Positions 24,019 to 59,683 of a stretch of DNA of 64,000 nucleotides are shown piece after piece. The translations under genes and the position numbers were made by a program. The notes beneath the pieces are model-generated. The model did not search any database, was not told where the DNA came from, and saw nothing but the letters and a program-made list of their open reading frames with translations. Location: positions 34,286-98,285 of the forward strand of contig JADBKO010000005.1 of the NCBI GenBank assembly GCA_014896355.1. The letters are read 5' to 3'. The DNA comes from Bacillota bacterium. Its GTDB lineage: Bacteria > Bacillota > UBA5301 > Bu52. How positions within the stretch are numbered: the stretch's first letter is position 1; the number at the start of each line of letters is the position of its first letter.

Positions 24019-24021
24019 AGT

Positions 24022-29356: not shown

Positions 29357-29420
29357 GGCGAGGATCGTGGGGCCTCACGGAGGCTATAAGACCCGGTAAG
29401 GTGGCCTCGAGGCCGAGTTA

Positions 29421-29480
29421 GCCGCAGCCTATCGCCAGGCGCAGCCGTTCGTGCCGGGCATAGGCTGCGGCTTTCTTATT
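29421..29480 (+). terminator. Rho-independent terminator closing the first carbohydrate operon
   Basis: GCCGCAGCCTAT...ATAGGCTGCGGC 12-bp stem followed by TTTCTTATT. Confidence 0.6.
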
Positions 29481-29490
29481 GTCAGGAACC

Positions 29491-29700
29491 GTTGCGTTTC
29501 TGTGCGCAACATGCGCAACGAATTCAGTCTACTTTACGGGCCCAGGAACGCGAGCTTAAATGGCGAAGAAGGAATTACTTCGAGACTGAAGAATATATAC
29601 TGCCGAAGAGACCGGTGGGCGAAGAGTGTTGCTCTGTTGCGCAATAGGTGCATTTGCTTACCCGGGCATGCTTGGGTAGTGCAACAGCCGCGCAACGCAT
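29491..29700 (+). promoter_or_regulatory. Cluster of TTGCGCAA-type palindromic repeats (candidate LacI-family operators) upstream of the LacI regulator gene
   Basis: GTTGCG-N8-CGCAAC at 29491-29510, ATGCGCAAC at 29511-29519, the perfect palindrome TTGCGCAA at 29637-29644, and GCAACAGCCGCGCAACG at 29683-29698. Confidence 0.3.
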
Positions 29701-29729
29701 ACGGCTGGTCTAGGGTTGGAGGTCTGAAG

Positions 29730-30815: not shown

Positions 30816-30869
30816 AGACCAGTTGGCTGCTGCGGCCGAAGTGCCACGGCGGGAAGGTGAGATGGGCCT

Positions 30870-32543: not shown

Positions 32544-32553
32544 GGGGATAATC

Positions 32554-33255: not shown

Positions 33256-33267
33256 CGGAGGAAGATC

Positions 33268-34770: not shown

Positions 34771-34855
34771 AGCTCTGGTAACCCTATTGCGGTCCGCGTT
34801 CAGCGCTACGTAGAGATCAACCGGGAAAACTCATTTGATGAGGGAGGCTTTATCC

Positions 34856-36178
34856 ATGTTTCGAAGGATGTTCAATCTAGAACGTGCACAGTCCCGGCTG
34901 GCTACGCCAGGCGGGGGCCTGCGGATGGCCTTGATAATACTCGCCGTAGCCGCCTGTCTTTCTGCCGTTACGCCTTCTGCCTGGGCGGCTTCCCGGACCA
35001 CGGTGACTTTTTGGATGGCTGGCAATGACCAGAAATTCATGGATACCGTCAACACCCAGCTTCTCCCTGCCTTTGAGAAGAAGTATCCCAAAATCGATCT
35101 CCAGATCACGTTCGTGCCGTGGGAAACTCTCTCTGTGAAGCTGGCAACGGCATTCGCCGGAGGCATGGCGCCGGACGTCTTTATGCACGGGGCAGCCGCC
35201 ACTGCTGGCTTTGCCGCAACGGGCCGCGTGGAGCCTTTGGATTCCTTGATCGCCAAGATGCCGGACGCCAGGGACTTCGGCAGCACCCTGGAGCAAGGTA
35301 ACTACTACGGAAAGCATTACATGATCCCCGTCTTCGGCGCCGGCCGGCTTCTGATGTATCGAGCTGACGAATTCAAGGAAGCGGGCCTCAATCCCGATGA
35401 GCCTCCGGCCACATGGGAGGAGTTCCGGAATGCAGCGATAAAACTCGCGATCCGCCGGGGAAATCAGATTGTTCGCGAAGGTATTGATCTCCCCACATCC
35501 GGCATCGATGCCCAGCAGATCTTTGCCTGCTTCCTGTGGCAGGCAGGAGGCAGCTTCTTCAACCGTGATTACACGCGGGTGACATTCAACGATGCCCACG
35601 GCGTGGAGGCCCTACAGTTTCTGGCGAATCTGATCCAAAAGGATAAGGTCGCAGATACTAGCATTAATCTGGGGCAGGGTAACGTGCCGCCTATCGCCAC
35701 CAACCAGGTTGCCATGCTTTTCGCCGTGCCGGGAGATGTGGCCCAAGTGAAAACCTACGCTCCCGGAATTTATAAGGAGATCCGGGTCGCACCGCCGCTA
35801 AAGAACAAAGAACAATGGACTTTCTACAGCTTCTCAGGGATGTTCATGTCCAAGACCAGCAAACATAAAGAAGACGCCTGGAAAGTCATGGAGTTCTTCT
35901 CCAGCCCCGAAGCTTTGGAGAAGATCAACGCATCCATGGGCACCCTTCCGCCGCGCCGTTCGCTGGCCAAGGCTCCGGCCTTCGCATCCGATCCGAACAT
36001 CCGGGCCTTTGTGGAAAGCATGCAATACGCAAGGGGAAACCCAAACATCGCCCAGTGGGTGCAGATCCGAGACATCCTGTCCCGGTACCTGGAGCAGGCG
36101 TTGTATGGCCGAATGACGCCGAAAGCTGCACTGGACCAGGCGGCCAAAGAGGCAGACGCCCTGCTGAGCAACCGCTAA
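34856..36178 (+). CDS. ABC transporter substrate-binding protein (CUT1 family)
   Basis: Signal peptide and SBP_bac_1-like sequence. ATG 34856 has a GAGGGAGG SD; the track ORF starts at 34835. Confidence 0.85.
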   Translation: MFRRMFNLERAQSRLATPGGGLRMALIILAVAACLSAVTPSAWAASRTTVTFWMAGNDQKFMDTVNTQLLPAFEKKYPKIDLQITFVPWETLSVKLATAFAGGMAPDVFMHGAAATAGFAATGRVEPLDSLIAKMPDARDFGSTLEQGNYYGKHYMIPVFGAGRLLMYRADEFKEAGLNPDEPPATWEEFRNAAIKLAIRRGNQIVREGIDLPTSGIDAQQIFACFLWQAGGSFFNRDYTRVTFNDAHGVEALQFLANLIQKDKVADTSINLGQGNVPPIATNQVAMLFAVPGDVAQVKTYAPGIYKEIRVAPPLKNKEQWTFYSFSGMFMSKTSKHKEDAWKVMEFFSSPEALEKINASMGTLPPRRSLAKAPAFASDPNIRAFVESMQYARGNPNIAQWVQIRDILSRYLEQALYGRMTPKAALDQAAKEADALLSNR

Positions 36179-36332
36179 GGGCTGCGCCTCAGGTAAAAGC
36201 CAGTAGTGAGAGTGGGCAAAATGCGGGAGAGGCGGGGCCAGGGGCGTGCGGGCCCCTACCTCTCCTACACGCCGCTCCGGTGCCTCCGAAGTCCCCTGTG
36301 GTTCCAGATCGACGCAGCTGGAGGGTTATTGT

Positions 36333-37229
36333 ATGTCATCATTATCTGCTTATTGGCGCAACAGGACACGCCGTGAACAGATGCTCACAGGGTACGCTTT
36401 TGTGGCACCCATTGTCCTATACACCCTAGTCACCGGGTTCATCCCCGTTGTAAGCTCGCTGTATCTGAGCTTCACAAACTACAACATGATGACGCCCGCG
36501 CGTTGGATTGGCCTCCAGAACTACGTTCAGGTCCTCTTCCACGACTCGCTCTTTTGGAGAGCCATGCTCAATACTGCCCAGTACTCTCTGGAGGTCCTTC
36601 CCCTCAATGTTCTTTTTTCCTTGTGCTTGGCCTTGTTGGTGAACCAAAAGCTGCGGGGAATTACAATCTTCCGTACGCTTTACTACCTGCCCGTGGTCAC
36701 CTCCAGCATTGCTGTGAGTATGATCTGGCTCTGGTTATACAACAAGAACTCAGGGCTGATCAACTTGTTTCTGGGGCTTTTCGGGTTGGGGCCTGTCGAC
36801 TGGCTGGGGACGCCGGGCCTGGCGCTGCATTCGCTCGTCTTGATGCGGGTCTGGAAAGGGATCGGCTGGAACATGGTGATCTATCTGGCGGGCCTCCAGG
36901 GGATTCCGAAATACCTGTACGAAGCCGCGGACATCGACGGGGCCTCCGGCTGGAAGAAATTCTCCCAAGTTACCTGGCCTTCGTTGCGTCCGGTGACCTA
37001 CTATATCGTGGTGATGGGGCTTATCAGCACCTTCCAAACCTTTGCCGAAATCTACGCCATGACCAACGGGGGGCCGCTAGGATCCACCACAACCGTGGCT
37101 TATCTGATCTATCAGCGTGCCTTCGGAGCCTTTGACATGGGCAATGCATCGGCTGTGTCTTTCATTCTGTTCGTGGTGATTTTCGGGCTGTCGCTGGTGA
37201 ACGTGAAGTACTTCCAGCCGCAAGACTAA
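36333..37229 (+). CDS. ABC sugar transporter permease (MalF-like)
   Basis: EAA loop EAADIDGASGWKKFSQVTWP. ATG 36333 has a GGAGGG SD. Confidence 0.85.
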   Translation: MSSLSAYWRNRTRREQMLTGYAFVAPIVLYTLVTGFIPVVSSLYLSFTNYNMMTPARWIGLQNYVQVLFHDSLFWRAMLNTAQYSLEVLPLNVLFSLCLALLVNQKLRGITIFRTLYYLPVVTSSIAVSMIWLWLYNKNSGLINLFLGLFGLGPVDWLGTPGLALHSLVLMRVWKGIGWNMVIYLAGLQGIPKYLYEAADIDGASGWKKFSQVTWPSLRPVTYYIVVMGLISTFQTFAEIYAMTNGGPLGSTTTVAYLIYQRAFGAFDMGNASAVSFILFVVIFGLSLVNVKYFQPQD

Positions 37230-40684: not shown

Positions 40685-42418
40685 GTGTCAGCCAGTGAAC
40701 GTGTGACCACCGGCGTGCCTCAACTGGATGAGGTCCTGGAAGGAGGCATTCCCCGGAACTCTCTCGTTTTGGTGTATGGCGGTCCCGGCACGGGCAAAAC
40801 CACCCTGGGCCTGCAATTCCTGGTGGAGGGCACCCGCCGCGGTGAGCCGGGGTTATTGGTGACCTTCGAGCAAATGCCGGAGCAGCTCTACCGGGATTTC
40901 GCACCCTTCGGATGGGATCTTCCGGGCCTGGTGCGGCAAAAACGCCTACAGATCCTTTGCACTTCCCCGGGCACGCTTTGGGAGGACCTCCTGAGCCCCG
41001 GCGGGATGGTGGAGGAAGCGTTCCGCCAACTGCGCGTGCAGCGCCTGGTCATCGACCCCATCACCTTGTTGGCCTGTGCCGGGGCTGTGGATGCGGGCTG
41101 GGCCCCGGCCGCCGGGGCGGCCCCAGGGTCCCCAGGGCTGGCAGCGGAGGCAGCGGCTGAAATCGCGGCCACGGGGCCTGCGCCAGCGGCGGAGGCCACG
41201 CCGTTGGCAGGAAGGGGCGCAGCCGCGGGGCTGGGCGCACCGTCTCCGGCCGGCGCGCACCCCTGGGCCAGCTCGCGCACGCGTATGTACGCAGTTTTCA
41301 ATGCCCTGCGCCGCCTGGGGGCCACTGCGCTTCTGTTGGCGGAGGCCCCGATGGCCGGCTGGGCCGGCGATGCGGGGCTCTCGGGCAGGAGTGGGCCGGA
41401 CGGGGGAGATCCCGGCGTGGCCGGTTTCCTGGCAGACGGCATCCTGGAACTGAGTTTCCCCTATGTGGATGTAGGCAGGAGCAGCCGTAGCCAGGAGACG
41501 GGCCTGGATGCGCAGGCGGCGGGCGGCGGCGCCATGGCCAGCCTGGCTGCCAACAGACGCAGGTTTGTGGAGGTGTTGAAGATGCGGGGCAGCGGCTTCG
41601 TGCCAGGCCGGCATCTAATGCGGTTTGATATCACTGGCTTGGCGTTGGTGCGGCCCCTGACCCGCATGCAGTCCGGGCGACGGGCGGCGCTGGAGAGCCC
41701 CGCCGCGGCGATCCCAACGGGCCTGCCGCTGTTGGACGACGCTCTGGGCGGGGGATTCCCGCGCGGGGCCACAGTTTTGTTGGACGTGAACGGCAAGGCC
41801 GACTATTATGATCTGGTGGGCCTGCTGATCCATCGCTGGTATGCCGCCGGGGCCAACCTCTACCTGCAGCCGTCCAGCCTGGTGGGCCCCATCGAGATTG
41901 TGGAAAATGTGCGGCGCCAGGGCAGCGATTTGCTGGAAGGCGCAGCCCAGGGGCGGATCCTGCTGGCGGAATACTTCAGGCGCCCGCTGCTGCCGGAACT
42001 GGAGAAATGCCTGATCCGCGGCTGGGAGATGAGCGACCGGGAGGCTTTGTCGTGGGTGCGGCAGTTCTTCGCCGAGTACATGGAGCCCGATGCACAGCGG
42101 GGACGGCCCTGGCTGATCTATCGGGATCTCAACACCCTGGCCGTGGCGCGGGGCAGCAAATACCTGGTGCAGGATTTCGCCGCTGCCACTTCCTGGGTTC
42201 GCGCCTGCCGCGGCGGTTATTTGGCCTTGGTGAACATGGAGGAGATCAGTCCTCATCTGGGGTCGTTTTTGGAGCGTACGGCCTCCGTGGTGGTGCGCAC
42301 GTGGCGGACCCAGCGTTATCAGTTTCTCCAGGTGGTCAAAGCCTTGGACGGACATGTAACGGATGCTCTGGTGGTGGAGCACCAGCCCGACCCGCCATAT
42401 ATCCGGCTCCTGGACTAA
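40685..42418 (+). CDS. KaiC-like RecA-superfamily ATPase with an intact N-terminal KaiC domain and a degenerate second domain
   Basis: Domain 1 has GVPQLDEVLEGGIPRNSLVLVYGGPGTGKTTLGLQF and Walker B LVIDPI. Domain 2 (LPLLDDALGGGFPRGATVLLDVNGKADYY) has lost the P-loop. A long Ala/Gly/Pro-rich linker lies between them. GTG start with a GGAGGTG SD. Confidence 0.8.
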   Translation: MSASERVTTGVPQLDEVLEGGIPRNSLVLVYGGPGTGKTTLGLQFLVEGTRRGEPGLLVTFEQMPEQLYRDFAPFGWDLPGLVRQKRLQILCTSPGTLWEDLLSPGGMVEEAFRQLRVQRLVIDPITLLACAGAVDAGWAPAAGAAPGSPGLAAEAAAEIAATGPAPAAEATPLAGRGAAAGLGAPSPAGAHPWASSRTRMYAVFNALRRLGATALLLAEAPMAGWAGDAGLSGRSGPDGGDPGVAGFLADGILELSFPYVDVGRSSRSQETGLDAQAAGGGAMASLAANRRRFVEVLKMRGSGFVPGRHLMRFDITGLALVRPLTRMQSGRRAALESPAAAIPTGLPLLDDALGGGFPRGATVLLDVNGKADYYDLVGLLIHRWYAAGANLYLQPSSLVGPIEIVENVRRQGSDLLEGAAQGRILLAEYFRRPLLPELEKCLIRGWEMSDREALSWVRQFFAEYMEPDAQRGRPWLIYRDLNTLAVARGSKYLVQDFAAATSWVRACRGGYLALVNMEEISPHLGSFLERTASVVVRTWRTQRYQFLQVVKALDGHVTDALVVEHQPDPPYIRLLD

Positions 42419-42675
42419 GGATTTTGGCCGGACTTTACCCGCGCTGCGAAAAGGGATATGATCCAGGTAGGAACGGAGAACCCCCCGGGGTACATTCTTT
42501 GCAGTGGACTCCCCGGCAGGTACGCCTCCTCCCGGGGGCGGCGGGTGGTCTGTTGATGCTTTGCGGCCGGTGCGTGGGCATACTAGGCCCGGCCAAGCAG
42601 CAGGTCCAAGCAGCCGGCCCGGCGCAGGACCCGGTCCGGCAAGGGGCAGGGAGAGTTTCTTGGAGGGATTGGAGC

Positions 42676-43605
42676 ATGCAAGTGGGTTTGATTGGTCTGG
42701 GGCGGATGGGCTACAATTTGGCGCTGAACATGCGCGATAAGGGCCACCAGGTGGTGGCGTTCAACCGTTCCCCGGAGAAGGTACGCCAGATCGAGGCGGA
42801 AGGGGGCATCACCGGCGCCTACACACTGGAGGAGCTGGTGCAGAAGCTGGCGCCTCCTCGTACAATCTGGATGATGATTCCTGCCGGCGAGGCCGTGGAG
42901 GAGATGATCCGCCGCCTGACCCCCCTGCTTTCGCGCGGCGATCTGCTGATCGACGGGGGCAATTCCTTCTACCAGGATACGCTGCGGCGGGCGGAACAGC
43001 TGCGTCCCACGGGCATCCATTTCATGGACGTGGGTACCAGCGGCGGCATTGAGGGCGCCCGGTACGGGGCGTGCACCATGGCCGGCGGCGACGACGAGGA
43101 CTTCGCGCGCGTCGAGCCACTTTTGCGCGACATCAGCGTGGCGCAGGGGTATATCCACGCGGGCCCGGTGGGCAGCGGCCATTTCGTCAAAATGGTGCAC
43201 AACGGCATTGAGTACGGAATGATGCAGGCCATGGGCGAAGGCTTCGAGGTGCTGGCCAAAGGGCCGTTTTCGCTCAATCTGAAAGAAGTGGCCAGGGTCT
43301 GGAATCACGGCTCCGTGATCCGGGGTTGGCTCATGGAGCTGGCGGAGAGCGCGTTTGCCAAGGATCCCCGGCTGGAGGCCATCCGTGGCGTGATGCACTC
43401 GTCGGGCGAGGGCTTGTGGACGGCGCAGACCGCTTTGAACCTGGGGATCCCGGCGCCGATCATCGCATTGTCGGTCATGATGCGGCACCGCTCGGAGCAG
43501 GACGAGAGTTTTGCCGGCAAGGTGGTGGCCGCCTTGCGCAACGAATTCGGGGGCCACGCCGTGGAGAAAGCGCCGGGGAAAGAGCCAGGGCCTGCGTCCC
43601 ACTGA
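42676..43605 (+). CDS. gnd: 6-phosphogluconate dehydrogenase, short (~300 aa) decarboxylating form
   Basis: MQVGLIGLGRMGYNLALNM Rossmann motif, and a 6PGD C-terminal domain with GHFVKMVHNGIEYGMMQ. The track ORF is extended upstream to 42007. Confidence 0.85.
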   Translation: MQVGLIGLGRMGYNLALNMRDKGHQVVAFNRSPEKVRQIEAEGGITGAYTLEELVQKLAPPRTIWMMIPAGEAVEEMIRRLTPLLSRGDLLIDGGNSFYQDTLRRAEQLRPTGIHFMDVGTSGGIEGARYGACTMAGGDDEDFARVEPLLRDISVAQGYIHAGPVGSGHFVKMVHNGIEYGMMQAMGEGFEVLAKGPFSLNLKEVARVWNHGSVIRGWLMELAESAFAKDPRLEAIRGVMHSSGEGLWTAQTALNLGIPAPIIALSVMMRHRSEQDESFAGKVVAALRNEFGGHAVEKAPGKEPGPASH

Positions 43606-43611
43606 GGGGCT

Positions 43612-45339
43612 GTGTCGAAGACCAAGCCGTGGCAGGATGGAGTCATTGGGATGGGATTGCAGCAAATGGAACAAAGCAGGATCATGCGGGCGGAGGCCGG
43701 CAGGACCGGGCAAGACGCCGGCGCTGCGGCCAATGCTGCGGCCAATGAGGGTCCGGGCGCTGCCGCAGGGGCTGCGCCTCCGTGCACGGTGGTGATTTTC
43801 GGGGCTACCGGAGATTTGGCCCAGCGCAAGTTGTTTCCAGCCTTGTACGGTCTCCATCGGGACGGCCTGCTGGATCCGCGCACGCAGGTCGTGGGCGTAG
43901 GGCGCCGGGAGAAAACCCCTGAGCAGTTCCGCTGTGAATTGCAGGAGTACGTGTGGCGGTTTTCGCGCCTGGCTGCGCCGGCGCGCCAGGCTCAGAGTCC
44001 AGGCGTGGGCGTCCTGCCGCAATGGGAGGATTTCGCCCGCCGCTTCCACTATTTCCGGCTGGAGATGCACGACGCTGAAGGGTATGGCCGGCTGCAGTCC
44101 TTTCTGGAAGAGCTGGAGCAGGCTGCAGGGGTCGGCCGCCGGCGCATCTTTTATTTGGCCGTGATGCCGGATCTCTTCGGCATCGTGACGGGCAACCTGC
44201 GCCAGGCAGGGCTGCTGGAAGCGCCAACACCCGCCCCGGACCCGGCGGCGGCACACGGGGCCGGAAAGGCGAACGGCACCGCAGGTTTGTGGCCGCGGTT
44301 GGTCATCGAGAAACCTTTCGGCTACGACCTGGAATCCGCCGCTCGCCTGAACCGGGAGATCCGCCAGGCTTTCCCGGAGGACGCAATCTATCGCATCGAC
44401 CACTACCTGGGCAAGGAGATGACGCAGAACATCAGCGTCATTCGCTTTGCCAATACCATCTTCGAGCCGGTCTGGAACCGCAACTACATCGACCACATTC
44501 AGATCATGTCCACCGAGACGGTGGGGGTGGAAAACCGGGGTGAGTACTATGATCGCGCCGGCGCACTGCGCGATATGGTGCAGAACCACATGCTCCAGCT
44601 GGTGGCCCTGGTGGCCATGGAGCCGCCCAGCAGCCTGGAATCGGAGGCCGTGCGCGACGAGAAGGTGAAAATCCTCCGTTCCCTGGTTCGTTGGCAGACC
44701 CCACGGGAGGTGGCCCGCAATGCCGTCCGCGGACAGTACGGGCCGGGGCGTGTGGCCGGGCAGGATGTCCCTGGATACCGCTCCGAGCCGGAGGTGCGCC
44801 CCGATTCCCGCACAGAGACTTTCGCCGCCATGCGGCTTTTCGTGGACAACTTCCGTTGGGCGGATGTGCCCTTCTATCTGCGCACCGGCAAACGGCTGGG
44901 GTACAAAGCCACGGAGATCGCCATCCAGTTCAAGCAGCTGCCGCGCATTCTGTATTTCCACGACTACGGCGGCCTGCAGCCCAACCGCCTGGTGATCCGC
45001 ATCCAGCCCGTCGAAGGTGTGTACTTTCAGATCAACGCCAAACAGACCGGCACCCAGACGGAGATGATGCCCGTGGCGATGGATTTCTGCCGCAATTGCG
45101 GCACCACGGCCAACTCTCCGGAGGCGTACGAGCGCCTGCTTTTCGATGTGATGCGGGGCGATGCCACGCTGTTCACCCGCTGGGATGAGGTCTCCCTGGC
45201 CTGGGAATTCGTGGACCCCATTGCCCGGGCTTGGGAGCAGACTACACCGGACTTCCCCAACTACCCGGCGGGATCCTGGGGGCCGGAGGCGGCTCGCAAT
45301 CTGCTGCACCAGGACGGGCGCTCGTGGTGGCCAGAATGA
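43612..45339 (+). CDS. zwf: Glucose-6-phosphate 1-dehydrogenase
   Basis: IFGATGDLAQRKL, RIDHYLGKE, EKPFG and a C-terminal G6PD domain. The real start is probably an internal ATG (43642-43684); the N-terminal ~40 aa are low-complexity. Confidence 0.85.
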   Translation: MSKTKPWQDGVIGMGLQQMEQSRIMRAEAGRTGQDAGAAANAAANEGPGAAAGAAPPCTVVIFGATGDLAQRKLFPALYGLHRDGLLDPRTQVVGVGRREKTPEQFRCELQEYVWRFSRLAAPARQAQSPGVGVLPQWEDFARRFHYFRLEMHDAEGYGRLQSFLEELEQAAGVGRRRIFYLAVMPDLFGIVTGNLRQAGLLEAPTPAPDPAAAHGAGKANGTAGLWPRLVIEKPFGYDLESAARLNREIRQAFPEDAIYRIDHYLGKEMTQNISVIRFANTIFEPVWNRNYIDHIQIMSTETVGVENRGEYYDRAGALRDMVQNHMLQLVALVAMEPPSSLESEAVRDEKVKILRSLVRWQTPREVARNAVRGQYGPGRVAGQDVPGYRSEPEVRPDSRTETFAAMRLFVDNFRWADVPFYLRTGKRLGYKATEIAIQFKQLPRILYFHDYGGLQPNRLVIRIQPVEGVYFQINAKQTGTQTEMMPVAMDFCRNCGTTANSPEAYERLLFDVMRGDATLFTRWDEVSLAWEFVDPIARAWEQTTPDFPNYPAGSWGPEAARNLLHQDGRSWWPE

Positions 45340-50234: not shown

Positions 50235-50583
50235 GCGGGCTCCCGAACGCCCTTCGGGGGCTCGTTGCTTCCTGGGGAGCTGGATGGGCCGCGCCCGCCG
50301 AGGTCCGGCGCAAAGTGTCGGCAGGAAGCCGGCCACAGCGGGGAGAATGGGTGAAAGAGCATCAGAGTGCGCCTCCTCAGGCAGTAGTGTGTCCGGGCCA
50401 GGCTGCCGGCTATTCGGGGGCGGCCAGGCTTGGTGCGTGCTGCCGGGTGTCGGATTCGCCAGGCCGGTCCTTCGGGGCCGGCGTAGAAAGGATGCTGCGA
50501 GGATGGATTCCCCCTCGGTGGATTCGGATCGCGGGGTCTCGGTGCCGGAAGCGGGAGATGGCGGCGCCTGCACAGGAGGATCC

Positions 50584-51558
50584 TTGAATAGGCTCAAGAT
50601 AGAGCCCCGGGGGAAGCGGGTGCTGGCTGTGTGCGCCCATCCGGATGATCTCGAGTTCTACTGCGGCGGAACCATGGCCCGGCTGGCGGCGGCCGGCGCC
50701 GAGATCGTTCTGCTCCTGGCCACAGCCGGGGATAAAGGAAGTTTTGACCCTGGCATGCCAGGAGCGCGTTTGGCTGAGCTACGGCTTGAGGAGGCCCTGC
50801 GGGGGGCGCACGTGATGGGCCTTTCGTCCGTCTACTGCCTGGGGTACCCGGACGGGGAGCTGGCATACGGGGTGTCCGCCGCTGAGCTGCGCTGCCGGAT
50901 TGCCGGCGTCATGCGGGCCGTGCGGCCGAATTTGCTGGTGACCTTCGACCCCTGGAAGCGTTACGAGCTGCACCCGGACCACCGGCGCGTCGGGCAGGTC
51001 ACCCTGGATGCCCGGTTGGCGGCGAAGCTGCCGCTTTACCCAGTGGAGGCCCGGCTGCCGCGGCGGCTGCCTGTGGCCGGTGGGGCCGGCGAGGGGGCTT
51101 CGGACGGTGGGGCGGGTGTCCGCCGCGTGGGAGGCGGCGCGCCGGGCATTGAGCAGCCTGCCGCGGCCCAGCCCTCGCCGGGCTTGCGGCCCTGGGCCAT
51201 TCCGGAAATATGGCTGTTTCAGCCAGAAGAAGCCAACCTACTGGCGGAAATCGGCCCTTTCTTCCCCGCCAAACTGGCGGCGCTGCAGGCCCATGCCAGC
51301 CAATTCCTGGAGGAGAAGGACACCCTGGCCGCCCAGCTGCGCTCGGAGGCGGCGGAAGAGGGCCGGCGCTGGCTGGGAAAGGCGGATGCCTGGAACCTGG
51401 CGCCGCAGGTCCTTTCCGTCCCGGTTTCTGCCGCTGGCCTTGCGCCAGCCGGGGGCCCGGCGGTGGATCCGGCGGGAGGCAGCGCCGGGCTCTATGAGGC
51501 CTTCCGGCGCATCATGATCGTGGGTTCAACAGCTTTCTCGGGGCAGAGTGCCCAGTAG
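50584..51558 (+). CDS. PIG-L / LmbE-family N-acetylglucosaminyl deacetylase (BshB/MshB-like)
   Basis: VLAVCAHPDDLEF hallmark and the HPDH motif (YELHPDHRRVG). TTG 50584 with a perfect AGGAGG SD 5 nt upstream; the track ORF is extended upstream to 50284. Confidence 0.75.
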   Translation: MNRLKIEPRGKRVLAVCAHPDDLEFYCGGTMARLAAAGAEIVLLLATAGDKGSFDPGMPGARLAELRLEEALRGAHVMGLSSVYCLGYPDGELAYGVSAAELRCRIAGVMRAVRPNLLVTFDPWKRYELHPDHRRVGQVTLDARLAAKLPLYPVEARLPRRLPVAGGAGEGASDGGAGVRRVGGGAPGIEQPAAAQPSPGLRPWAIPEIWLFQPEEANLLAEIGPFFPAKLAALQAHASQFLEEKDTLAAQLRSEAAEEGRRWLGKADAWNLAPQVLSVPVSAAGLAPAGGPAVDPAGGSAGLYEAFRRIMIVGSTAFSGQSAQ

Positions 51559-52618: not shown

Positions 52619-54715
52619 ATGGGAAGCAGCGGCCGGAATCAAGATCATCATCTTCGATCTGTCTGGAAACAGGCCCTGGCCTGGATCGTACTGGCTTTGG
52701 CGCTGACGGCGGCTGCGCTGTTGCTGGCAGGGTGTCCTGAGCGCGGCAAGAAGGGCCAGAAGGCGGCGGCGCCCCCGGGCACCGTGATCGCCGTTTCCCT
52801 GGCCAATGGACAAAGCCTTTGGTCCCAGGAGATTCGCCTGGCCATGGAAAGTGCTGCCAAGGGCGCGGGCGGAGCCGGCAGTGCGGGCGGAGCCGGCGGG
52901 GCCGGCAGGGCCGGGGCTGCGGGCGGCAGTGCGGGTGGAGGCGGACAGGCCGGGGCCGGCGGGGGAGCTGCCGGGCAGGGGAGCCAGGCTGGGCAGGTCA
53001 GGCTCATGTGGCTGGATGCCAAAGGAGACGCCAGCAAGCAGGCTCAGGATTTGCAGCGCCTGACCACCGGTGGGACAAAGCCCAAGGCCGTGGTGGTGGA
53101 CCCCGTCAACAGCGCCTTACTGGCGGGGCCCCTGGCCGCCCTGGAAGGGGTTGGAGTCCATGTGCTGCTGCTGCGGGACATGCCCAAAGGCGCCTGGGTT
53201 GACGGCGTCATTGCGCCGGACTTCCGCTTGGCCGGGGAGCTGGCTGGCGAAGCCATCGGGCGCATCTGGCAAGGGCGGCCGCCGTGGTCCGGCCCGGGCT
53301 TGGCCGGGCCCGGTGCCGGGGGTGCTGGAGGTGGCGTAGCTGCGGCGGGATGGTCCGCATTGCCCCGCAAGGGACGTACTGTGTATTTCGTAGACGGACA
53401 GAGTCTGGCCGTAGCAGGTGTCACCGGCGGTGTGGCCACGGGCGGCGGCGCAGGCAGCACGGGGGGTGGCGGTGCTGGAGGTGCCGCCGGGGGTGCTGCG
53501 GGCGGGGCCGGTGGCCAAGGCGCGGGTGGCGCCGGGGGCGGGGGGAGTACCTCCGCCGGCGCTGCGCCGCCTGCCGTCCCGGCGGGCTCCTGGGCGGTAG
53601 GACGCCTGCTGGAAGGTTTGCAGGCTGCGCTGAGCCCTGCCGCCGGGCAAGCCCGGATAGCTCCGCTGGGAGCCGTGGACCCGGCCAGACTTCCGGCGCT
53701 GGGTGCCCTGGCCGTCTATGGGCCAGAGGCAGCCCAGATGTACCTGCCAGGGGCTGGAACAACGCCCTTGGCGGCCACAGGGGGCGGCGCCGGGGGTGGC
53801 GGTGGCACCAGCGAGGGTGGGGCCGGTGGTGCGGGCGGCGGTGGCGGTGGACCAGGCGGCGGTGGGGCTGCCGGGAGGCCGGGTGGGGCCGGTGGGCAGT
53901 CCACAGCTGCGGGAGCAGCGCCCGCCGGCATGCTTCCCCCGCCTCCGGTGCTGGCGGTCTTTGGCGCGGCGCCGGCAGTCATTTCCGCGGCGCTTGCCGG
54001 CCAACCCGTGGCAGTCATCGATCTGCGCCCGGATCTGGTGGGAGCCCACGCGTTTGCTGCAGCCCGGGATTTGGCGCAGACGGGGCGCTGGGCCTACGGC
54101 GAAATGGCGCGGGTGGACAATGGCTACATCCCTTTGCAGCGGGTTCCTGTGAGCCTGGTCTCCCCTCAGGACGCGCCGGCGGTCACCAACCGTGTCCGCA
54201 AGGTCTGGCAGCGCATTCAGCCCGCCGCAGGGCAGGCGCGCGCAGCCGGGGGCGTCACCCACCCCTTTGGGCGCCAGACAGCGGCCGGCCGTGCAGGGGG
54301 TCAGGGCGGGCAGCAGGGAGGCGGGGGCTCCAGTCAAGGCGGCGGTGGGTCGGGAGGTTCAGGCGCGGGTGGATCCGCCGGCGGCACGTCCCAAGCCGGT
54401 ACCGGCAAGCAGCCGCCGCTGCAGTTGCTGGAGCTGTCTTTGGCCAGCGGCAAGGTGCTGACGCTCAGCATTCCCCATCCTGTGGGGGGCGTCCGTATTG
54501 TGGGGGGATCCCTTCTCATCGAGGCTCCCGACCTGCCTGTACCCATGACCCTGCAGAGCCCCGCTGATCCTGTGCGCAGTGTGCGGCTGCTGCTGGCCCG
54601 CGGCGCTCAGGCGGCGGGCGGTGCGGGCCAGGGCCAGGCTGGAGGAGGAGCCGGCGGGGCAGAAGGCGGCGGTCCGGGCGGTGGAGCCGGCGGGGGTGGA
54701 GGAGGTGGCATGTGA
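52619..54715 (+). CDS. Lipoprotein with a type-I periplasmic-binding-protein (sugar-binding-like) fold interrupted by long Gly/Ala-rich low-complexity tracts
   Basis: Lipobox LLLAGC. PBP-I N-lobe segments (GTVIAVSLANGQS, VRLMWLDAKGDASKQAQDLQRL, KPKAVVVDPVNSALLAGP, VHVLLL) are separated by (G/A)n tracts such as GAGGAGSAGGAGGAGRAGAAGGSAGGGGQAGAGGGAAG. ATG 52619; the track ORF starts at 52334. Confidence 0.6.
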   Translation: MGSSGRNQDHHLRSVWKQALAWIVLALALTAAALLLAGCPERGKKGQKAAAPPGTVIAVSLANGQSLWSQEIRLAMESAAKGAGGAGSAGGAGGAGRAGAAGGSAGGGGQAGAGGGAAGQGSQAGQVRLMWLDAKGDASKQAQDLQRLTTGGTKPKAVVVDPVNSALLAGPLAALEGVGVHVLLLRDMPKGAWVDGVIAPDFRLAGELAGEAIGRIWQGRPPWSGPGLAGPGAGGAGGGVAAAGWSALPRKGRTVYFVDGQSLAVAGVTGGVATGGGAGSTGGGGAGGAAGGAAGGAGGQGAGGAGGGGSTSAGAAPPAVPAGSWAVGRLLEGLQAALSPAAGQARIAPLGAVDPARLPALGALAVYGPEAAQMYLPGAGTTPLAATGGGAGGGGGTSEGGAGGAGGGGGGPGGGGAAGRPGGAGGQSTAAGAAPAGMLPPPPVLAVFGAAPAVISAALAGQPVAVIDLRPDLVGAHAFAAARDLAQTGRWAYGEMARVDNGYIPLQRVPVSLVSPQDAPAVTNRVRKVWQRIQPAAGQARAAGGVTHPFGRQTAAGRAGGQGGQQGGGGSSQGGGGSGGSGAGGSAGGTSQAGTGKQPPLQLLELSLASGKVLTLSIPHPVGGVRIVGGSLLIEAPDLPVPMTLQSPADPVRSVRLLLARGAQAAGGAGQGQAGGGAGGAEGGGPGGGAGGGGGGGM
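52860..54715 (+). repeat. Multiple imperfect GGN/GCN simple-sequence tracts inside the lipoprotein gene
   Basis: Runs such as ggcgcgggcggagccggcagtgcgggcggagccggcggggccggcagggccggggctgcgggcggc recur at least six times along the gene. They also create long spurious ORFs on the opposite strand. Confidence 0.7.
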
Positions 54716-54837
54716 AACCGCCGGCCGTGGCATCCGGTCCGTGGGCGGGCGACCGCCCCGAATTTCCGGCGGCTGCGTCCCGGCGTGATCCTGTTATAAT
54801 AGTTGAGCGGGATCCAGAGGCGCGGGGAGGGAAAATT

Positions 54838-56328
54838 TTGCATTCTGGAAGCGGCCAGCGGGTCATCATCGTGGGAGCGGGCCCTGCCGGCGTTTTTACT
54901 GCATTGCGCCTGGCGGCCACCGGGGGATTTCAGGTCACCATCATGGACAAGGGACGGGATCTTTCCCACCGTTCCTGCCCCTCCATCGAGCGCAACGCGG
55001 GCTGCGTCAACTGCCCCACCTGCTCCGTGATCTCCGGGTGGGGCGGCGCCGGGGCGTTCAGCGACGGCAAGCTTACCCTCTCGCCGGAAATCGGCGGCCA
55101 TCTGGGCGAATACGTGGGTCAGGAGAAACTTGCTGGCCTACTGGAGGAAGCGGACCGGATCTATCTTCAGTTCGGGGCACCGCCCCGCGTTTACGGGGAG
55201 GTTACGCCGGAGGTGGAGGAGCTGATCCGCAAGGCTCGCATGGCGGACCTGACCATGATTCCTACGCGCATTCGCCATCTGGGTACCGGATACAGCAAGC
55301 AGGTGCTGGCTGCCATGGAGTCACATTTGCGCCAGCTTGGCGTCGATATCCGCATGGGGGTGGAGGTGGAATCCATCCTCAGCCGGCCGGCGGAAGGCCA
55401 TGGTGGTTCCGGCCCGGCGAAGGATGCAGGCCAGGTGCCGGCGGAGGAAGTCTGGGGCGTTCGTACAGCCAAAGGGGAAGAGGTCCCTGCAGACTACGTC
55501 GTGGTGGCCCCGGGCCGCGAAGGGGCGGAGTGGTTGCGGGGTGAGGCGGAACGCCTGAAGATTCCTCTGGCCACCAACCCCGTGGATATCGGCGTGCGGG
55601 TGGAAACTGCGGCGGAGGTGCTCGAGCACATCACCAGTAAGGTCTATGAGGCGAAGCTCATATTCTACTCCAAGACGTTCGAGGACAAAGTGCGCACTTT
55701 CTGCATGTGCCCCCACGGGGAAGTGGTAACGGAGAACCTGGATGGCCTCATCACGGTGAACGGGCATAGTCACGCGGAGATCAAGACCGAAAACACGAAT
55801 TTCGCCCTGCTGGTGAGCAAGACCTTCACTCAGCCCTTCAAGGATCCCATTACCTACGGCAAGCATATTGCCGGCTTGGCCAATTTGTTGGGGGGCGGTG
55901 TTTTGGTGCAGCGGCTGGGTGATCTTTTGACGGGACATCGTTCCACGGAGGAACGGATCCACAAGGGCACCATCCGGCCTACCCTGCACGATGCCACGCC
56001 GGGGGATCTGAGTCTGGTCCTTCCCTACCGCTATTTGCAGGCGCTGGTGGAGATGCTGCAGGCTTTGGACCGCATTGCACCGGGAATCTATTCGCGTAAC
56101 ACCCTGCTTTACGGGGTAGAGGTCAAATTCTACTCGTCCCGCCTGCAGCTTTCGGCCGAACTGGAAACCCCCGTACGCAATCTGTTTGCCACCGGGGACG
56201 GAGCGGGGGTTACCCGCGGCTTGATGCAGGCTTCGGCCTCCGGGCTGGTGGTGGCCGAAGCCATTCGAAAGCGCGCGGCTCTGGCCTTGCTCCCTGCCGC
56301 CTGCGGGCACTCACGAGACCGCCAGTGA
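54838..56328 (+). CDS. FAD-dependent dehydrogenase of the COG2509 family (N-terminally short form)
   Basis: VIIVGAGPAGVFTALRLA dinucleotide motif, and a C-terminal FAD-dependent-protein domain with GDGAGVTRG. TTG 54838 with a GGGGAGGG SD; the track ORF starts at 54712. Confidence 0.75.
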   Translation: MHSGSGQRVIIVGAGPAGVFTALRLAATGGFQVTIMDKGRDLSHRSCPSIERNAGCVNCPTCSVISGWGGAGAFSDGKLTLSPEIGGHLGEYVGQEKLAGLLEEADRIYLQFGAPPRVYGEVTPEVEELIRKARMADLTMIPTRIRHLGTGYSKQVLAAMESHLRQLGVDIRMGVEVESILSRPAEGHGGSGPAKDAGQVPAEEVWGVRTAKGEEVPADYVVVAPGREGAEWLRGEAERLKIPLATNPVDIGVRVETAAEVLEHITSKVYEAKLIFYSKTFEDKVRTFCMCPHGEVVTENLDGLITVNGHSHAEIKTENTNFALLVSKTFTQPFKDPITYGKHIAGLANLLGGGVLVQRLGDLLTGHRSTEERIHKGTIRPTLHDATPGDLSLVLPYRYLQALVEMLQALDRIAPGIYSRNTLLYGVEVKFYSSRLQLSAELETPVRNLFATGDGAGVTRGLMQASASGLVVAEAIRKRAALALLPAACGHSRDRQ

Positions 56329-56432: not shown

Positions 56433-57380
56433 TCATTTCCCGCCCTTGCCGCTGGCACCCTGGCTGGAGGAACCTCCGGCACCAGAGCCTCCGGAGCCGG
56501 CGCCACTGCCGGAGCTGTTCCCGTTCCCGTTGCTGCCCCCGTTGCCGTGGGTGGACTGATGGGTGCGATCGCGGTCACGGTCCTGATTCTGCGTGCGATC
56601 CTGGTTGCGGTCCTGATCCTCGACTTGGTTTCCATCCTGACCCTGCTGGCGGTCCTGAACCTCCTGGCCGTCGCCGGCCTTGCCGCCCGCCGCCGCTTTC
56701 AGCTGCTCCTGGACCCGTTGGCGGATCTGAGCAGCCAGCTTTTCGCCCCGGGCCCCGGAGGCCAGGGCCTCTCGGATGGCGTTCCGCACAGCGTAGCCGT
56801 TGGTCGCCTGCACTTGGGCCGGTTGGCCCGTAGGTTCCGTTTCCTGGCCATACACCATGTCGCGTAGATCATGAAGCAACTTCTCCAAATCTGCCGGGGA
56901 GAGCTTGCCGCTCAAAGCCAGATCCTGCAGCTCACCGCCTAGCCCGGCCGCAGCCAGCTCCGTCAGGGTCAGCGCCAGCTTTTTGGCCTGGCCTGGAGGG
57001 GTTTCTACGCCCGCCACCGTGTCGCTGACGGCCTTCAGATCCGCCAGGGGAATCACCAATTCGCCGGTTTCACTGATTGCCAGCAACTGCTGCAGTCTGG
57101 CGGTGAGCTGCTGCTTGAGGCCGGCGGCCTCCTGCGGAGACAGGTTGGCCGCCACTTGCGCGAGAATGGCATCGACGCTGCTGTCCAGATTATCCATGGT
57201 CACCGTGAGAGCCTCTGGGGGCTCCGTGGATGGCACGGTCCCTTCGTCTGCCGCCAGCGCTGCAGGGGAAACGGTTCCCAGGAGGAGCAAAGCTGCAAAT
57301 ACGATTACGACGGCGAGGGTGGCCGTGATGGCGATCCCAGCTGACGTGGAGGACAGGCGCTTCCATGCACCTTTCATCAT
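56433..57380 (-). CDS. Secreted or membrane-anchored hypothetical protein with a coiled-coil-like middle and a Q/D/R/N/G-rich tail
   Basis: Signal anchor MMKGAWKRLSSTSAGIAITATLAVVIVFAALLLLG. The ATG at 57380 has an AAGGAG SD 6 nt upstream. The C-terminus contains repeated DRNQDRTQNQDRDRDR and GNGGSNGNGNSSGSGAGSGGSG. Confidence 0.55.
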   Translation of the reverse strand: MMKGAWKRLSSTSAGIAITATLAVVIVFAALLLLGTVSPAALAADEGTVPSTEPPEALTVTMDNLDSSVDAILAQVAANLSPQEAAGLKQQLTARLQQLLAISETGELVIPLADLKAVSDTVAGVETPPGQAKKLALTLTELAAAGLGGELQDLALSGKLSPADLEKLLHDLRDMVYGQETEPTGQPAQVQATNGYAVRNAIREALASGARGEKLAAQIRQRVQEQLKAAAGGKAGDGQEVQDRQQGQDGNQVEDQDRNQDRTQNQDRDRDRTHQSTHGNGGSNGNGNSSGSGAGSGGSGAGGSSSQGASGKGGK

Positions 57381-57462
57381 AGGCAACTCCTTTCTGATCT
57401 CTCTAGGTTTTGGGCCCTCTTTGAACCGCTTACGAATGCTTGGGTCATAACGGACCCAAGAG

Positions 57463-57873: not shown

Positions 57874-59409
57874 TTAGTTGTCGGCTTCCGGAGCCGGGCC
57901 GTCATAGGCCTTGCGTGCCAGCGCCTGCAAGGCCTCGGCGATCACTGCGTCATCGCCCGGCAGGAGGGTGCGGACGTCCAGCAAGACCTGATCTCCTTGG
58001 ACTCTGGCGATGACCGGGACATGCCAGTTGCGCAGCCAGTTCTCCAACGCCGCCGCGGAGGTGTTCCGCGGGCTCAGCACCACCAGTTGGGTCGGAAGAT
58101 CCTGGGCGGGCAAGGCCCCACCGCCCACCTGGGAGGAGCCAGGCCGGACCTCCACCGACAGAACCGGCGCTTCCGGCGCCCAGCCGGGCTCGCTCTCTGC
58201 ATCCGCCCGGGCCGCCGGGTCGGGCGGGATCTGGCCCACGGCCTGCCGGAGGCGCTGAGCCAGGTCCGCCGCCCGCCGGCGCAGGTCTTCCGGCGTGAGA
58301 GTCAGCATGCGCAAAGTGGGGATCTCGCTGCGGGCCAGATCCGGGTTGCGGTAGAGGCGGAGAGTGGCTTCCAGGGCAGCCAAGGTCATCTTGTCGATGC
58401 GCACAGCCCGGTTCAGCGGGTGGCGCGCCAGGCGCTCGACGGTTGCCCGTGTACCGACGATGATTCCGGCCTGGGGACCACCCAGGAGTTTATCTCCGCT
58501 GAACGTCACCACGTCCGCGCCGGCGGCTACGGTCTGTTGCACTGTCGGCTCATCGGTGATATGGTATTGCCGCAGATCCAGAAGAAATCCACTGCCCAGA
58601 TCGCTCATGACGGGAAGGTTGTGCCGCCTTCCCAATTGGACGAGCTCCTTCAGGGGTACCGTCTCGCTGAAGCCGATGATCCGGAAATTACTGGTATGGA
58701 CGTGAAGGAGCAGCGCGGTCTCCGGTCCGATGGCTGCCTCATAATCGCGCAGGTGCGTCTTGTTGGTGGTACCCACCTCCACCAGGCGGACGCCGCTCTG
58801 GGCCATGATGTCGGGGATGCGGAAAGACCCGCCGATTTCCACCAGTTGGCCCCGCGATACCACGGCCTCCTTGCCAGCTGCCAGGCTGCTCAGGGCCAGG
58901 AGGACGGCGGCGGCGTTGTTGTTCACCGCCATGGCCGCCTCGGCGCCGGTCAGCTCGCAAAGAAGGCTGGCCACGTGCTCATAGCGCGACCCCCGCTGCC
59001 CGCTGCCCAGGTCGAATTCGAGATTGGAGTAGCCTGTTGCGATGCGCTCCACAGCATCGATGGCGGCTTGGGCCAGGGGCGAGCGACCCAGATTGGTGTG
59101 CAAGACGATCCCCGTGGCGTTCACCACCCGGCGAAGCGAGGGCGCGGCGGCGGAAGCCAGGCGGCCGGTCACCCAGTGAACCAAAGCCTCCGGCGTGCTG
59201 GCCGCCGAAGCGTGCGCCAAGCCCGGCCAGTCCGTGGCGCCCAGGAGGGCGTTACGGGCGGCGTCTGTGGCCTGCTGTACCACGGCGGCCACGTAGGCAT
59301 GGCCCAGCTGCGGCTCAAAGGAGGCAATCTCCGGCACCGCCAGCAACCGGCTTACCGAGGGAAGAGAACGGAGAAGCTCCCGGCGCCGCTCTTCCAACGT
59401 ACCAGGCAT
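57874..59409 (-). CDS. selA: L-seryl-tRNA(Sec) selenium transferase
   Basis: SelA family with FSGDKLLGGPQAGIIVG (PLP lysine). ATG 59409 has an AAGGAGGG SD; the track ORF starts 19 codons further upstream. Confidence 0.88.
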   Translation of the reverse strand: MPGTLEERRRELLRSLPSVSRLLAVPEIASFEPQLGHAYVAAVVQQATDAARNALLGATDWPGLAHASAASTPEALVHWVTGRLASAAAPSLRRVVNATGIVLHTNLGRSPLAQAAIDAVERIATGYSNLEFDLGSGQRGSRYEHVASLLCELTGAEAAMAVNNNAAAVLLALSSLAAGKEAVVSRGQLVEIGGSFRIPDIMAQSGVRLVEVGTTNKTHLRDYEAAIGPETALLLHVHTSNFRIIGFSETVPLKELVQLGRRHNLPVMSDLGSGFLLDLRQYHITDEPTVQQTVAAGADVVTFSGDKLLGGPQAGIIVGTRATVERLARHPLNRAVRIDKMTLAALEATLRLYRNPDLARSEIPTLRMLTLTPEDLRRRAADLAQRLRQAVGQIPPDPAARADAESEPGWAPEAPVLSVEVRPGSSQVGGGALPAQDLPTQLVVLSPRNTSAAALENWLRNWHVPVIARVQGDQVLLDVRTLLPGDDAVIAEALQALARKAYDGPAPEADN

Positions 59410-59683
59410 AGGCCCTCCTTGGAAAGAGAGAGTTTCAAGGGTTTTTTCGTTTGTTGCCAGGCCCATTCCTGCCTGGGCTCTTCACATAAGGAATGCGAGA
59501 AGGGTTATGAGATTGAGACTTTTTCGACCTCCTTCGAGATTTTCTTTGCCCCGGGCTTCTTGGAGCTATTAAGTTTAGCTCCACTTGCGCCGAAACTAGT
59601 AATGGCCGGAGAAAATGCCGGCTAGGCCCGAGGCAAGGCCTACATAACTACCCCTGACGGGGCGCGGAGACAGGAATACACGT

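Follow-up and report, generated by a model that had tools for sequence, protein, structure and literature searches.

Type I periplasmic binding proteins (PBPs) of cluster B, to which the sugar-binding proteins XylF and RbsB belong (Pfam family Peripla_BP_4; structures 3ma0 and 2dri), are exported proteins with a two-lobe alpha/beta fold. Several substrate-binding proteins (SBPs) of the Peripla_BP_4/1 type, namely LuxP, XylFII, ChvE and TorT, signal apart from or besides transport (PMC8050422). In the low-complexity parts of bacterial proteins, no residues are more frequent than Gly and Ala, and no codons more frequent than GGC and GCC (PMC6821194). Both Gly/Ala low-complexity regions and PBP lipoproteins are already commonplace. 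Here we analyse a gene for a predicted lipoprotein that combines the two. It lies on the + strand at positions 52619-54715 of a 64,000-nucleotide (nt) stretch of DNA from a Bacillota bacterium (assembly GCA_014896355.1, contig JADBKO010000005.1, positions 34,286 to 98,285 of the forward strand), which is called the window throughout.

Like XylF and RbsB, the window protein is predicted to be exported and to have the two-lobe alpha/beta fold, and it shows significant similarity to them in the N-lobe. It differs in having no permease or ATPase gene beside its own and in not keeping the sugar-contact residues at the corresponding columns of an approximate alignment, and it adds four loop insertions in the core that are predicted to be disordered, a linker, a C-terminal beta module and a low-complexity tail. 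LuxP, XylFII, ChvE and TorT are encoded beside a sensor kinase or a transporter, whereas the loci of the family show no conserved gene for a kinase, a chemoreceptor or another signalling protein beside the lipoprotein gene. As in bacterial Gly/Ala regions in general, GGC and GCC are the top Gly and Ala codons of the window tracts, but here six tracts amount to 221 amino acids (aa), or 32% of the protein, and four of them lie inside one compact fold and not at termini or between domains. What is unusual is the number and size of the predicted disordered insertions within one such fold, the reuse of two loops as insertion hot-spots in a family, to which the window protein adds two sites of its own, and the family itself, which is unstudied, carries a linker-hairpin-tail extension and has no transporter partner. 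A literature search gave no account of this lipoprotein family, nor of PBPs with multiple internal low-complexity inserts.

The gene and its parts are listed below in window coordinates; pLDDT is the per-residue confidence (predicted local distance difference test) of the AlphaFold2 model described further on.

52619-54715, + strand: whole gene, ending in the stop codon TGA (54713-54715) and encoding a lipoprotein of 698 aa, in which a type I PBP core and a C-terminal beta-rich module are combined with six low-complexity tracts.
52619-52735, + strand: predicted signal peptide, aa 1-39, ending in the lipobox LAGC (L36-A37-G38-C39, 52724-52735), with R6, R13 and K17 in the n-region, a 20-residue uncharged h-region and a helix modelled over residues 9-37.
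52781-52864, + strand: core segment a, aa 55-82 (beta1-alpha1), pLDDT about 92, equivalent to Peripla_BP_4 positions 1-25 after removal of tract 1.
52865-52993, + strand: tract 1, aa 83-125, Gly/Ala insertion in the loop from alpha1 to beta2, pLDDT below 50 at residues 88-120.
52994-53278, + strand: core segment b, aa 126-220 (beta2 to alpha4), the best conserved segment, pLDDT about 94.
53300-53350, + strand: tract 2, aa 228-244, in the loop from alpha4 to the following beta strand, within an insert zone of aa 221-252 (53279-53374), pLDDT in the 50s to 60s.
53435-53566, + strand: tract 3, aa 273-316, in a beta-to-alpha loop after the strand VYFVDG, within an insert zone of aa 265-320 (53411-53578), pLDDT below 50 over residues 265-319.
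53579-53758, + strand: core segment d, aa 321-380, helices and strands of the C-lobe, pLDDT about 79, aligned with relatives.
53771-53917, + strand: tract 4, aa 385-433, in an alpha-to-beta loop, within an insert zone of aa 381-442 (53759-53944), pLDDT below 50 over residues 381-430.
53945-54244, + strand: core segment e, aa 443-542, comprising the last C-lobe strand, the hinge return, an N-lobe beta-hairpin and C-terminal helices, pLDDT about 90.
54293-54388, + strand: tract 5, aa 559-590, within a Gly/Gln/Ser linker zone of aa 543-598 (54245-54412) behind the PBP core, pLDDT below 50.
54413-54598, + strand: C-terminal beta-rich module, aa 599-660, six predicted strands, pLDDT about 77, positional counterpart of the hairpin of the family and about 33 aa longer.
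54605-54712, + strand: tract 6, aa 663-698, Gly/Ala tail ending in GGGGGGGM, pLDDT below 50; its last codons include GGAGGAGG (54698-54705).

In the native protein the match to Peripla_BP_4 (PF13407) scored 32.9 bits, against a gathering cut-off of 35.1, and placed aa 123-220 on profile positions 26-121. After removal of the tracts in silico the score was 41.7 bits (E 1.3e-10), and aa 57-177 were aligned contiguously to profile positions 1-121. Since deletion makes the profile alignment contiguous, tract 1 must have been inserted after beta1-alpha1 and before beta2, and the native score stays just under the cut-off because this tract splits the profile match. A sequence search of the PDB gave a PBP of Mycobacterium smegmatis as the best match (4yv7, E 4.4e-8); next in rank were proteins that bind ribose and galactose.

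For the structure prediction, all 698 residues were given to AlphaFold2 along with an alignment of 51 relatives. The five core segments (295 residues) were modelled with a mean pLDDT of about 89, while tracts 1, 3, 4, 5 and 6 remained below 50. When the model was compared to the PDB by Foldseek, cluster-B sugar-binding proteins were retrieved exclusively: the closed xylose-binding protein (XBP) 3ma0 with an E value of 1.4e-11 and a target TM-score (TMt) of 0.76, the ribose-binding protein (RBP) entries 2gx6 and 2dri with TMt 0.79, and 4zjp with TMt 0.80. These alignments span 470-510 query columns, that is both lobes, with gaps at the tracts. The 295-residue type I core (cluster B, XylF/RbsB-like) is thus intact in the predicted structure. 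A reading of the DNA made from the letters and their open reading frames (ORFs), here called the sequence-only reading, had proposed that a type I PBP fold is kept around Gly/Ala insertions and had suggested structure prediction as a check; the prediction agrees with it, and an artefact of low-complexity translation, for which a model devoid of a PBP core would have spoken, is not supported.

The six Gly/Ala tracts comprise aa 83-125, 228-244, 273-316, 385-433, 559-590 and 663-698, and the protein as a whole consists of 25.6% Gly and 19.5% Ala. The sequence-only reading had spoken of six or more tracts of 25-60 residues that interrupt the core. The six tracts are there, but only four of them fall in the core; the fifth is the linker behind it and the sixth the C-terminal tail. 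The lengths also need correction, to 17-49 aa by a strict definition and up to 64-66 aa for insert zones that include flanks other than Gly/Ala. Over all six frames of the window 18 such tracts were detected, of which seven are in the frame of the lipoprotein (the strict mask splits tract 5). The others are 15-27 residues long and scattered, no other gene carrying more than one short tract, and none occurs in the two ordinary SBP_bac_1 binding proteins of the window. The clustering of tracts is therefore peculiar to the lipoprotein gene and does not reflect a general trait of this genome or its binding proteins. From the models, the tracts appear to be disordered expansions of loops, linker and tail, and may be disordered in vivo as well. 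Judged by the topology of the fold, tracts 1, 2 and 4 would extend helix-to-strand loops that face away from the cleft between the lobes, a side on which the fold can accommodate insertions. The loop of tract 3, which follows the strand equivalent to residues 125-131 of RBP, would be on the cleft side according to the modelled secondary structure and the alignment.

The reading frame is uninterrupted over 698 codons from ATG 52619 to TGA 54713-54715. All six homologous segments are held in one frame across five internal tracts, for which the chance expectation is (1/3)^5, or about 0.4%. In the structured segments the G+C content is 0.74-0.84 at third and 0.44-0.58 at second codon positions (GC3 and GC2), as in neighbouring genes. 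Several overlapping ORFs, among them one of 406 aa on the - strand and one of 427 aa in another + frame, gave no Pfam match, and an Rfam scan of the gene region gave none either, so that the idea of alternative coding or RNA content was dropped. We conclude that the gene is real and unusual and, as its coding signature indicates, translated. The N-terminus has the form MGSSGRNQDHHLRSVWKQ-ALAWIVLALALTAAALL-LAGC, with a charged n-region, an h-region and a lipobox of the pattern [LVI][ASTVI][GAS]C. In 51 relatives C39 is invariant and G38 nearly so (at least 90%). The lipobox LAGC noted earlier from the sequence is thus present at aa 36-39, and the product is predicted to be an extracytoplasmic, lipid-anchored protein.

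To find relatives, the tract-deleted core was used as query in an exhaustive phmmer search of 1.84 billion representative sequences, which gave 87 proteins with E<=1e-3, 44 of them with E<=1e-10. The top match was WP_027717669 of Desulfovirgula thermocuniculi (P0001; E 8.8e-22, 35% identity over core positions 25-441), and identity of the core to relatives was 25-35%. Word-indexed homology searches retrieved nothing with either the full protein or the tract-deleted core, probably as a result of low-complexity words saturating the candidate list, and a family-profile search retrieved one protein only. For the lipoprotein and five neighbouring proteins, a collection of 15 billion proteins contained no exact sequence match. 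Together with a best genome match of 57-61% identity for the neighbouring FAD-dependent protein, this marks the source as a Bacillota member of high G+C (64%) that lacks close relatives among the sequences of these databases.

The relatives are lipoproteins of 400-540 aa. They come from thermophilic anaerobic Bacillota (Desulfovirgula, Calderihabitans, Thermincolia) and many metagenomes; named members are WP_027717669, P0042 of Calderihabitans maritimus and MHB8170259 of a Thermincolia metagenome-assembled genome, all annotated at NCBI as "sugar ABC transporter substrate-binding protein" (ABC, ATP-binding cassette). All 52 aligned members match Peripla_BP_4, the best of the 51 relatives with 1.1e-46. 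Their common layout consists of a lipobox, the PBP core, a Gly-rich linker, a small C-terminal beta module and a Gly-rich tail. The linker is rich in Gly, Gln, Ser and Glu, has a median length of 34 aa and is nearly universal; the tail is rich in Gly and Gln (median 21 aa). The C-lobe and hinge share the block GVGA..G.HDAEVD..PDLL..W.YD...NG.Y.VPA..PVRLI..N.YLL..RWG, and the C-terminal motif of 27 residues, KTxLxIxTxDGKTxExxIxGEIxxIE, would form a beta-hairpin. The model of a canonical member, P0006, has a pLDDT of 88 overall (core 97-98, linker below 50, hairpin 83-86); it superposes on RBP 2dri with TMt 0.91 at 2.1 Å, in a Foldseek range of 0.87-0.91. One locus of the collection (L106:2492-4441, + strand) contains a 649-aa ORF whose N-terminal part is thioredoxin-like and foreign to the family and whose remainder, starting with GVGAD, is the C-terminal half of a member; this ORF is either a real fusion or truncation or an assembly chimera.

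The window protein has the architecture of the family, with the linker at aa 543-598, the beta module at 599-660 and the tail at 661-698. Since relatives share linker and tail, tracts 5 and 6 are the local version of these family-wide elements. Core segment e is the homologue of the GVGA..HDAEVD..PDL..W.YD..VPA..PVRLI block of the family and departs from it at several conserved residues; the signature residues D133, A134, D137, Q141, P189, D201, G206, D468, P471, P505 and P510 are retained in the core. Lipobox, homologous core, Gly-rich linker and tail, beta module and insertions at the sites of tracts 1 and 2 are common to the window protein and the family. The window copy stands apart as the most divergent one, with a longer C-terminal module that does not match the family hairpin and with Gly/Ala instead of Gly/Gln tracts. 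The sequence-only reading had missed this family, which is unlinked to ABC transporter genes and in which low-complexity insertions of linker, tail and loops are the rule. Two ideas on the C-terminus found no support. Similarity of the family hairpin to small lipoprotein domains of the YgdI/DUF903 type had no Pfam match behind it even at E<=10 and was dropped, and an origin of the window module by tandem duplication of the hairpin is unproven, the hairpin profile giving no significant match.

Insert lengths were compared in 75 relatives, 51 from the protein search (alignment A1) and 24 from metagenome loci. At the tract 1 site, Gly/Gln inserts of 43-65 aa occur in 12 of the 75, and at the tract 2 site, the commonest hot-spot, inserts of 28-94 aa in about 22; the window protein has an insert at both of these family hot-spots. 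No relative has the two together, each carrying one or none. The other two sites are filled in the window protein only: at the tract 3 site all 75 relatives have 3-4 aa as compared to 64 aa, and at the tract 4 site the relatives of alignment A1 have 11-14 aa and the 24 metagenomic ones 11 aa, as compared to 66 aa. With all four sites filled, the low-complexity load in insert zones is 285 aa, versus 45-162 in relatives. The tracts of the window protein consist of 48% Gly, 23% Ala and 5% Gln, those of relatives of about 30% Gly, 25% Gln and 4% Ala. The higher the G+C content of a locus, the richer its tracts are in Gly (Spearman 0.66, P=3e-4), which fits a compositional drive in this genome of 64% G+C. 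In relatives, inserts at the tract 1 site have a conserved VPVQ at the middle (e.g., L093-L105, P0026), and those at the tract 2 site end in GAVDYN..AQLP or PPE.Q..G (e.g., L082-L092, P0007, P0011). These embedded motifs argue that the inserts of relatives are inherited within subclades and do not turn over rapidly, and that they carry something under selection.

Members of the family usually share a strongly conserved position. The canonical gene order is ftsE-ftsX, an M23 hydrolase with PcsB coiled coil, an S41 Ctp protease, a PDZ protein, a family-4 uracil-DNA glycosylase (UDG), a small divergent ORF, the family gene and uvrB-uvrA-uvrC, and it recurs in Desulfovirgula and in no fewer than 17 metagenomic loci. 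Examples of the block are L083:1-12240 and loci L084, L088, L091, L094-L096, L099, L101, L105, L110, L111 and L113. The small divergent ORF (L083:5487-5840 on the - strand and 16 other loci, 17 in all) lies directly upstream of the family gene and encodes 96-180 aa without a Pfam or NCBIfam match. The window copy is not placed between UDG and uvrB, and none of the canonical neighbours (ftsEX-M23-Ctp-PDZ-UDG, uvrBA) is found within the 64-kb window. Besides it, a few more members are ectopic (L081, L112).

Neither the window nor about 25 family loci have a BPD_transp_2-type permease or an importer ATPase beside the gene. The importers that the window does encode belong to the CUT1 type and each come with a dedicated SBP_bac_1 protein; the window's ABC-2 system (60.8-62.6 kb) is of the exporter type. 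Equivalog cut-offs of NCBIfam were not reached, with 15.3 bits on RbsB (PRK10653) versus 337, and with 50-86 bits (maximum 85.8) for relatives on XylF (TIGR02634) versus 389.6. We then considered the ten ribose-contact residues of E. coli RBP, their numbering verified on the sequence (N13, F15, F16, D89, R90, R141, F164, N190, D215, Q235). In a MAFFT alignment at about 20% identity, which may be off by a residue or two, family and window protein have other residues at essentially all ten columns. By this approximate alignment, the D89 column is E in 13 of 19 family members and R in the window protein, so that the pair D89/R90 becomes E/x (family) or R/D (window protein); R141 is replaced by a hydrophobic residue and Q235 by T, I or L. 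Because ABC importer neighbours are missing and the ribose-type contacts are not kept at the aligned columns, we infer that the protein may be a stand-alone binding or scaffold module of the cell surface and not the receptor of a transporter. In that case linker and tail would serve as flexible spacers, giving the C-terminal module the range to contact a partner within the cell envelope.

At the DNA level, the sequence-only reading had described the tracts as imperfect ggcgg/gccgg simple repeats. This description does not hold. Tandem Repeats Finder (TRF) found only short, poor arrays of 2-5 copies with 62-90% match (periods 9, 18, 21 and 27). Over periods of 1-30, the longest perfect runs in the gene are G x6, a 3-nt unit x4, a 9-nt unit x1.8 and an 18-nt unit x1.8, and the sole unit repeated four times, TGC, lies outside the tracts. 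All four Gly codons are used in the tracts (GGC 47, GGT 29, GGG 28, GGA 19), and the four Ala codons are likewise interspersed. The tracts are 70-76% identical to each other, as shared composition would give, although 45-nt registers are detectable. In 1000 shuffles of synonymous codons within the tracts, nearby identical 9-mer pairs numbered 13.2±7.4 versus 31 observed (P=0.02), and the longest in-phase run was 11.1±1.9 versus 15 observed (P=0.05). This faint fossil signal of DNA-level duplication fits tracts that originated through slippage or unequal exchange. Most likely the tracts would have arisen via old in-frame duplication or slippage of GC-rich GGN/GCN codons, and later point mutation would have scrambled them, so that they are no longer hypermutable.

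The proposal that the tracts are current slippage substrates of variable length, which would make the product a contingency surface protein differing between cells or strains, draws on the weak tandem structure seen by TRF and in the 45-nt registers, on the slight excess of repetitiveness over the shuffle null (P ~0.02-0.05), and on the widely variable insert lengths of relatives at the sites of tracts 1 and 2. Set against this are the shortness of the perfect tandems, the position of the TGC run and the interspersed Gly and Ala codons, as well as the conserved VPVQ and GAVDYN..AQLP motifs by which the inserts of relatives appear to be inherited. As the sequence lacks perfect tandems and its Gly codons are mixed, it is today a poor substrate, ongoing slippage is unlikely, and we hold a contingency protein of this kind to be very improbable. 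It could also be asked whether the tracts are expanded or chimeric products of mis-assembly. The gene region is GC-rich (0.70-0.78), of low complexity and difficult for short-read assemblers, and the inserts of tracts 3 and 4 are found in no other assembly. On the other hand, each tract is in frame and flanked by homologous core segments in proper order, independent assemblies of relatives show inserts at the sites of tracts 1 and 2 with the same linker and tail, and a mutual identity of only 70-76% makes collapse or expansion of near-identical copies unlikely. We regard an assembly artefact as extremely improbable.

Taken together, the window protein is probably a divergent, relocated copy of the lipoprotein family, with an intact PBP core, disordered expansions that are no longer hypermutable, and a stand-alone role. 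Several results weigh against this view. The window protein retains 41 of 72 columns that are at least 70% conserved, the lowest value when compared to the 51 relatives (45-69), and near-invariant residues are lost (G447V, R512S, N518D, T608L, G620H). A profile of the hairpin motif scored -1.9 bits on its C-terminus, which is no match, with T608, G620 and E615 replaced. These losses could reflect decay rather than function. The geometry of the AlphaFold2 core partly reflects the relatives whose alignment was the input, the non-transport inference draws on gene neighbourhood and the approximate alignment at about 20% identity, and the databases searched hold no relative of more than 50% identity from which selection on the tracts could be estimated. 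The main competitor is a decaying paralogue, duplicated or translocated, in which relaxed selection and GC-driven Gly/Ala expansion have left little or no function. The low retention of conserved columns, the place outside the ftsEX...uvrBA position, the largest low-complexity load, two insertions shared with no relative and a degenerate C-terminal motif would all suit it; an intact frame through five internal tracts, the retained lipobox and core signature residues, a core predicted with high confidence, codon-position G+C typical of coding DNA and the existence of other members outside the canonical context do not, and we consider such decay unlikely, if worth keeping in mind. It is also conceivable that the protein is an ordinary sugar SBP whose CUT2 permease is encoded at another place of the genome. 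XylF and RbsB are nearest in fold and sequence, NCBI names the relatives accordingly, and some SBPs encoded as orphans are known to work with distant transporters. Yet no CUT2 permease or ATPase is adjacent in the window or the family loci, the NCBIfam scores are far under the cut-offs, the ten RBP contacts are not conserved at the columns of the approximate alignment, and the conserved linker, hairpin and tail are without counterpart in transporter SBPs, so that we give this explanation a slim chance.

A more far-reaching idea, which we regard as speculative and improbable, concerns the whole family. It would be an unrecognised class of envelope lipoproteins of thermophilic spore-forming Bacillota, in which a ligand-binding PBP domain bears disordered Gly-rich "tentacles" and the tethered hairpin docks by strand addition on a partner, for instance the PDZ protein or the Ctp protease of the ftsEX-M23-Ctp-PDZ cluster. 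In this way remodelling of the cell wall would be tied to a small-molecule signal. On this view the window protein is a hyper-expanded paralogue, and its tract 3 (a disordered loop of 55-64 residues at the cleft) would act as lid or autoinhibitor.

About 190 residues in four loops of a 295-residue PBP core, with the predicted fold unbroken, show what load of disorder a compact fold can absorb, and insertion seems to be channelled to particular loops that are reused across the family. The position next to cell-division, cell-wall and uvrBA genes, the lack of transporter partners and the extra C-terminal module suggest that the relatives are misannotated by default as "sugar ABC transporter substrate-binding protein". 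In protein engineering, the four insertion sites may represent natural permissive points in a biosensor scaffold of the RBP/XBP type.

In the window, the lipoprotein gene is preceded by a 200-nt divergent intergenic stretch of lower G+C, a divergent Amidohydro_2 gene and a PIG-L/BshB-like deacetylase gene, and it is followed by a co-oriented gene for a protein dependent on flavin adenine dinucleotide (FAD) and by the genes of an unassigned secreted protein and SelA. None of these neighbours occurs in 29 family loci. The FAD gene is relevant to the 3' end of the lipoprotein gene:

54712-56328, + strand: FAD-dependent protein (FAD-depend_C PF21688, COG2509-like), with an ambiguous start at GTG 54712 or TTG 54838.

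The match to PF21688 supports the adjacent, co-oriented COG2509-like gene of the sequence-only reading. The same reading had given an ATGA overlap between the lipoprotein stop codon and an ATG start at 54712. The lipoprotein gene actually ends in GGC ATG TGA, in which ATG (54710-54712) is its last sense codon, and the first start of the FAD ORF is GTG 54712, which leads to a 4-nt GTGA overlap with the lipoprotein stop. The codons GGA GGA GGT of the poly-Gly tail constitute the Shine-Dalgarno-like sequence GGAGGAGG seven nt before this GTG. The alternative start TTG 54838 has its own Shine-Dalgarno sequence, GGGGAGGG at 54824-54831, and fits the N-termini of homologues at least as well; in comparison with 80 relatives, homology of the FAD protein starts only at residue 40-51. 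For these two reasons, translational coupling from the lipoprotein to the FAD ORF is uncertain. The identical ...GGGGGGGM ending of the relative P0008 was considered as a sign of shared coupling and is a coincidence: its locus has the canonical uvrB context and no overlapping gene. Synteny was also followed via the FAD gene, whose best genome match is 57-61% identical. None of 80 FAD-gene loci contains a homologue of the lipoprotein and none of the 29 family loci contains the FAD gene, so that a meaningful link between the two is not supported.

Other observations concern the surrounding genes. The PIG-L/BshB1-like deacetylase (50284-51558, + strand) has a short Gly/Ala insert at 51073-51120 (VAGGAGEGASDGGAGV) and extra C-terminal sequence past the Pfam domain. 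Just past the FAD gene, a 317-aa ORF of the exported type (56433-57386, - strand) is a second low-complexity exported protein. It has a hydrophobic or signal segment at the N-terminus, a stretch rich in D, Q, N and R, and a C-terminal tail rich in Gly, Ser and Asn, and it gave no significant Pfam or NCBIfam match. Positions 18784-37229 (+ strand) hold an apparent duplicated carbohydrate-utilisation module, with pairs of FAD_oxidored (18784-20517, 33268-34770), DUF4127 (21946-24018, 30870-32543) and SBP_bac_1 (24022-25284, 34835-36178) genes together with a GH20 enzyme, BPD_transp_1 permeases, a LacI-type regulator and a GHL10/DUF4985 protein. At 40685-45339 (+ strand) a KaiC-like ATPase ORF overlaps a 6-phosphogluconate dehydrogenase ORF and is followed by glucose-6-phosphate dehydrogenase. 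SelA (selenocysteine synthase, E 6.5e-155) is encoded at 57874-59466 on the - strand, and we read the organism as a maker of selenoproteins.

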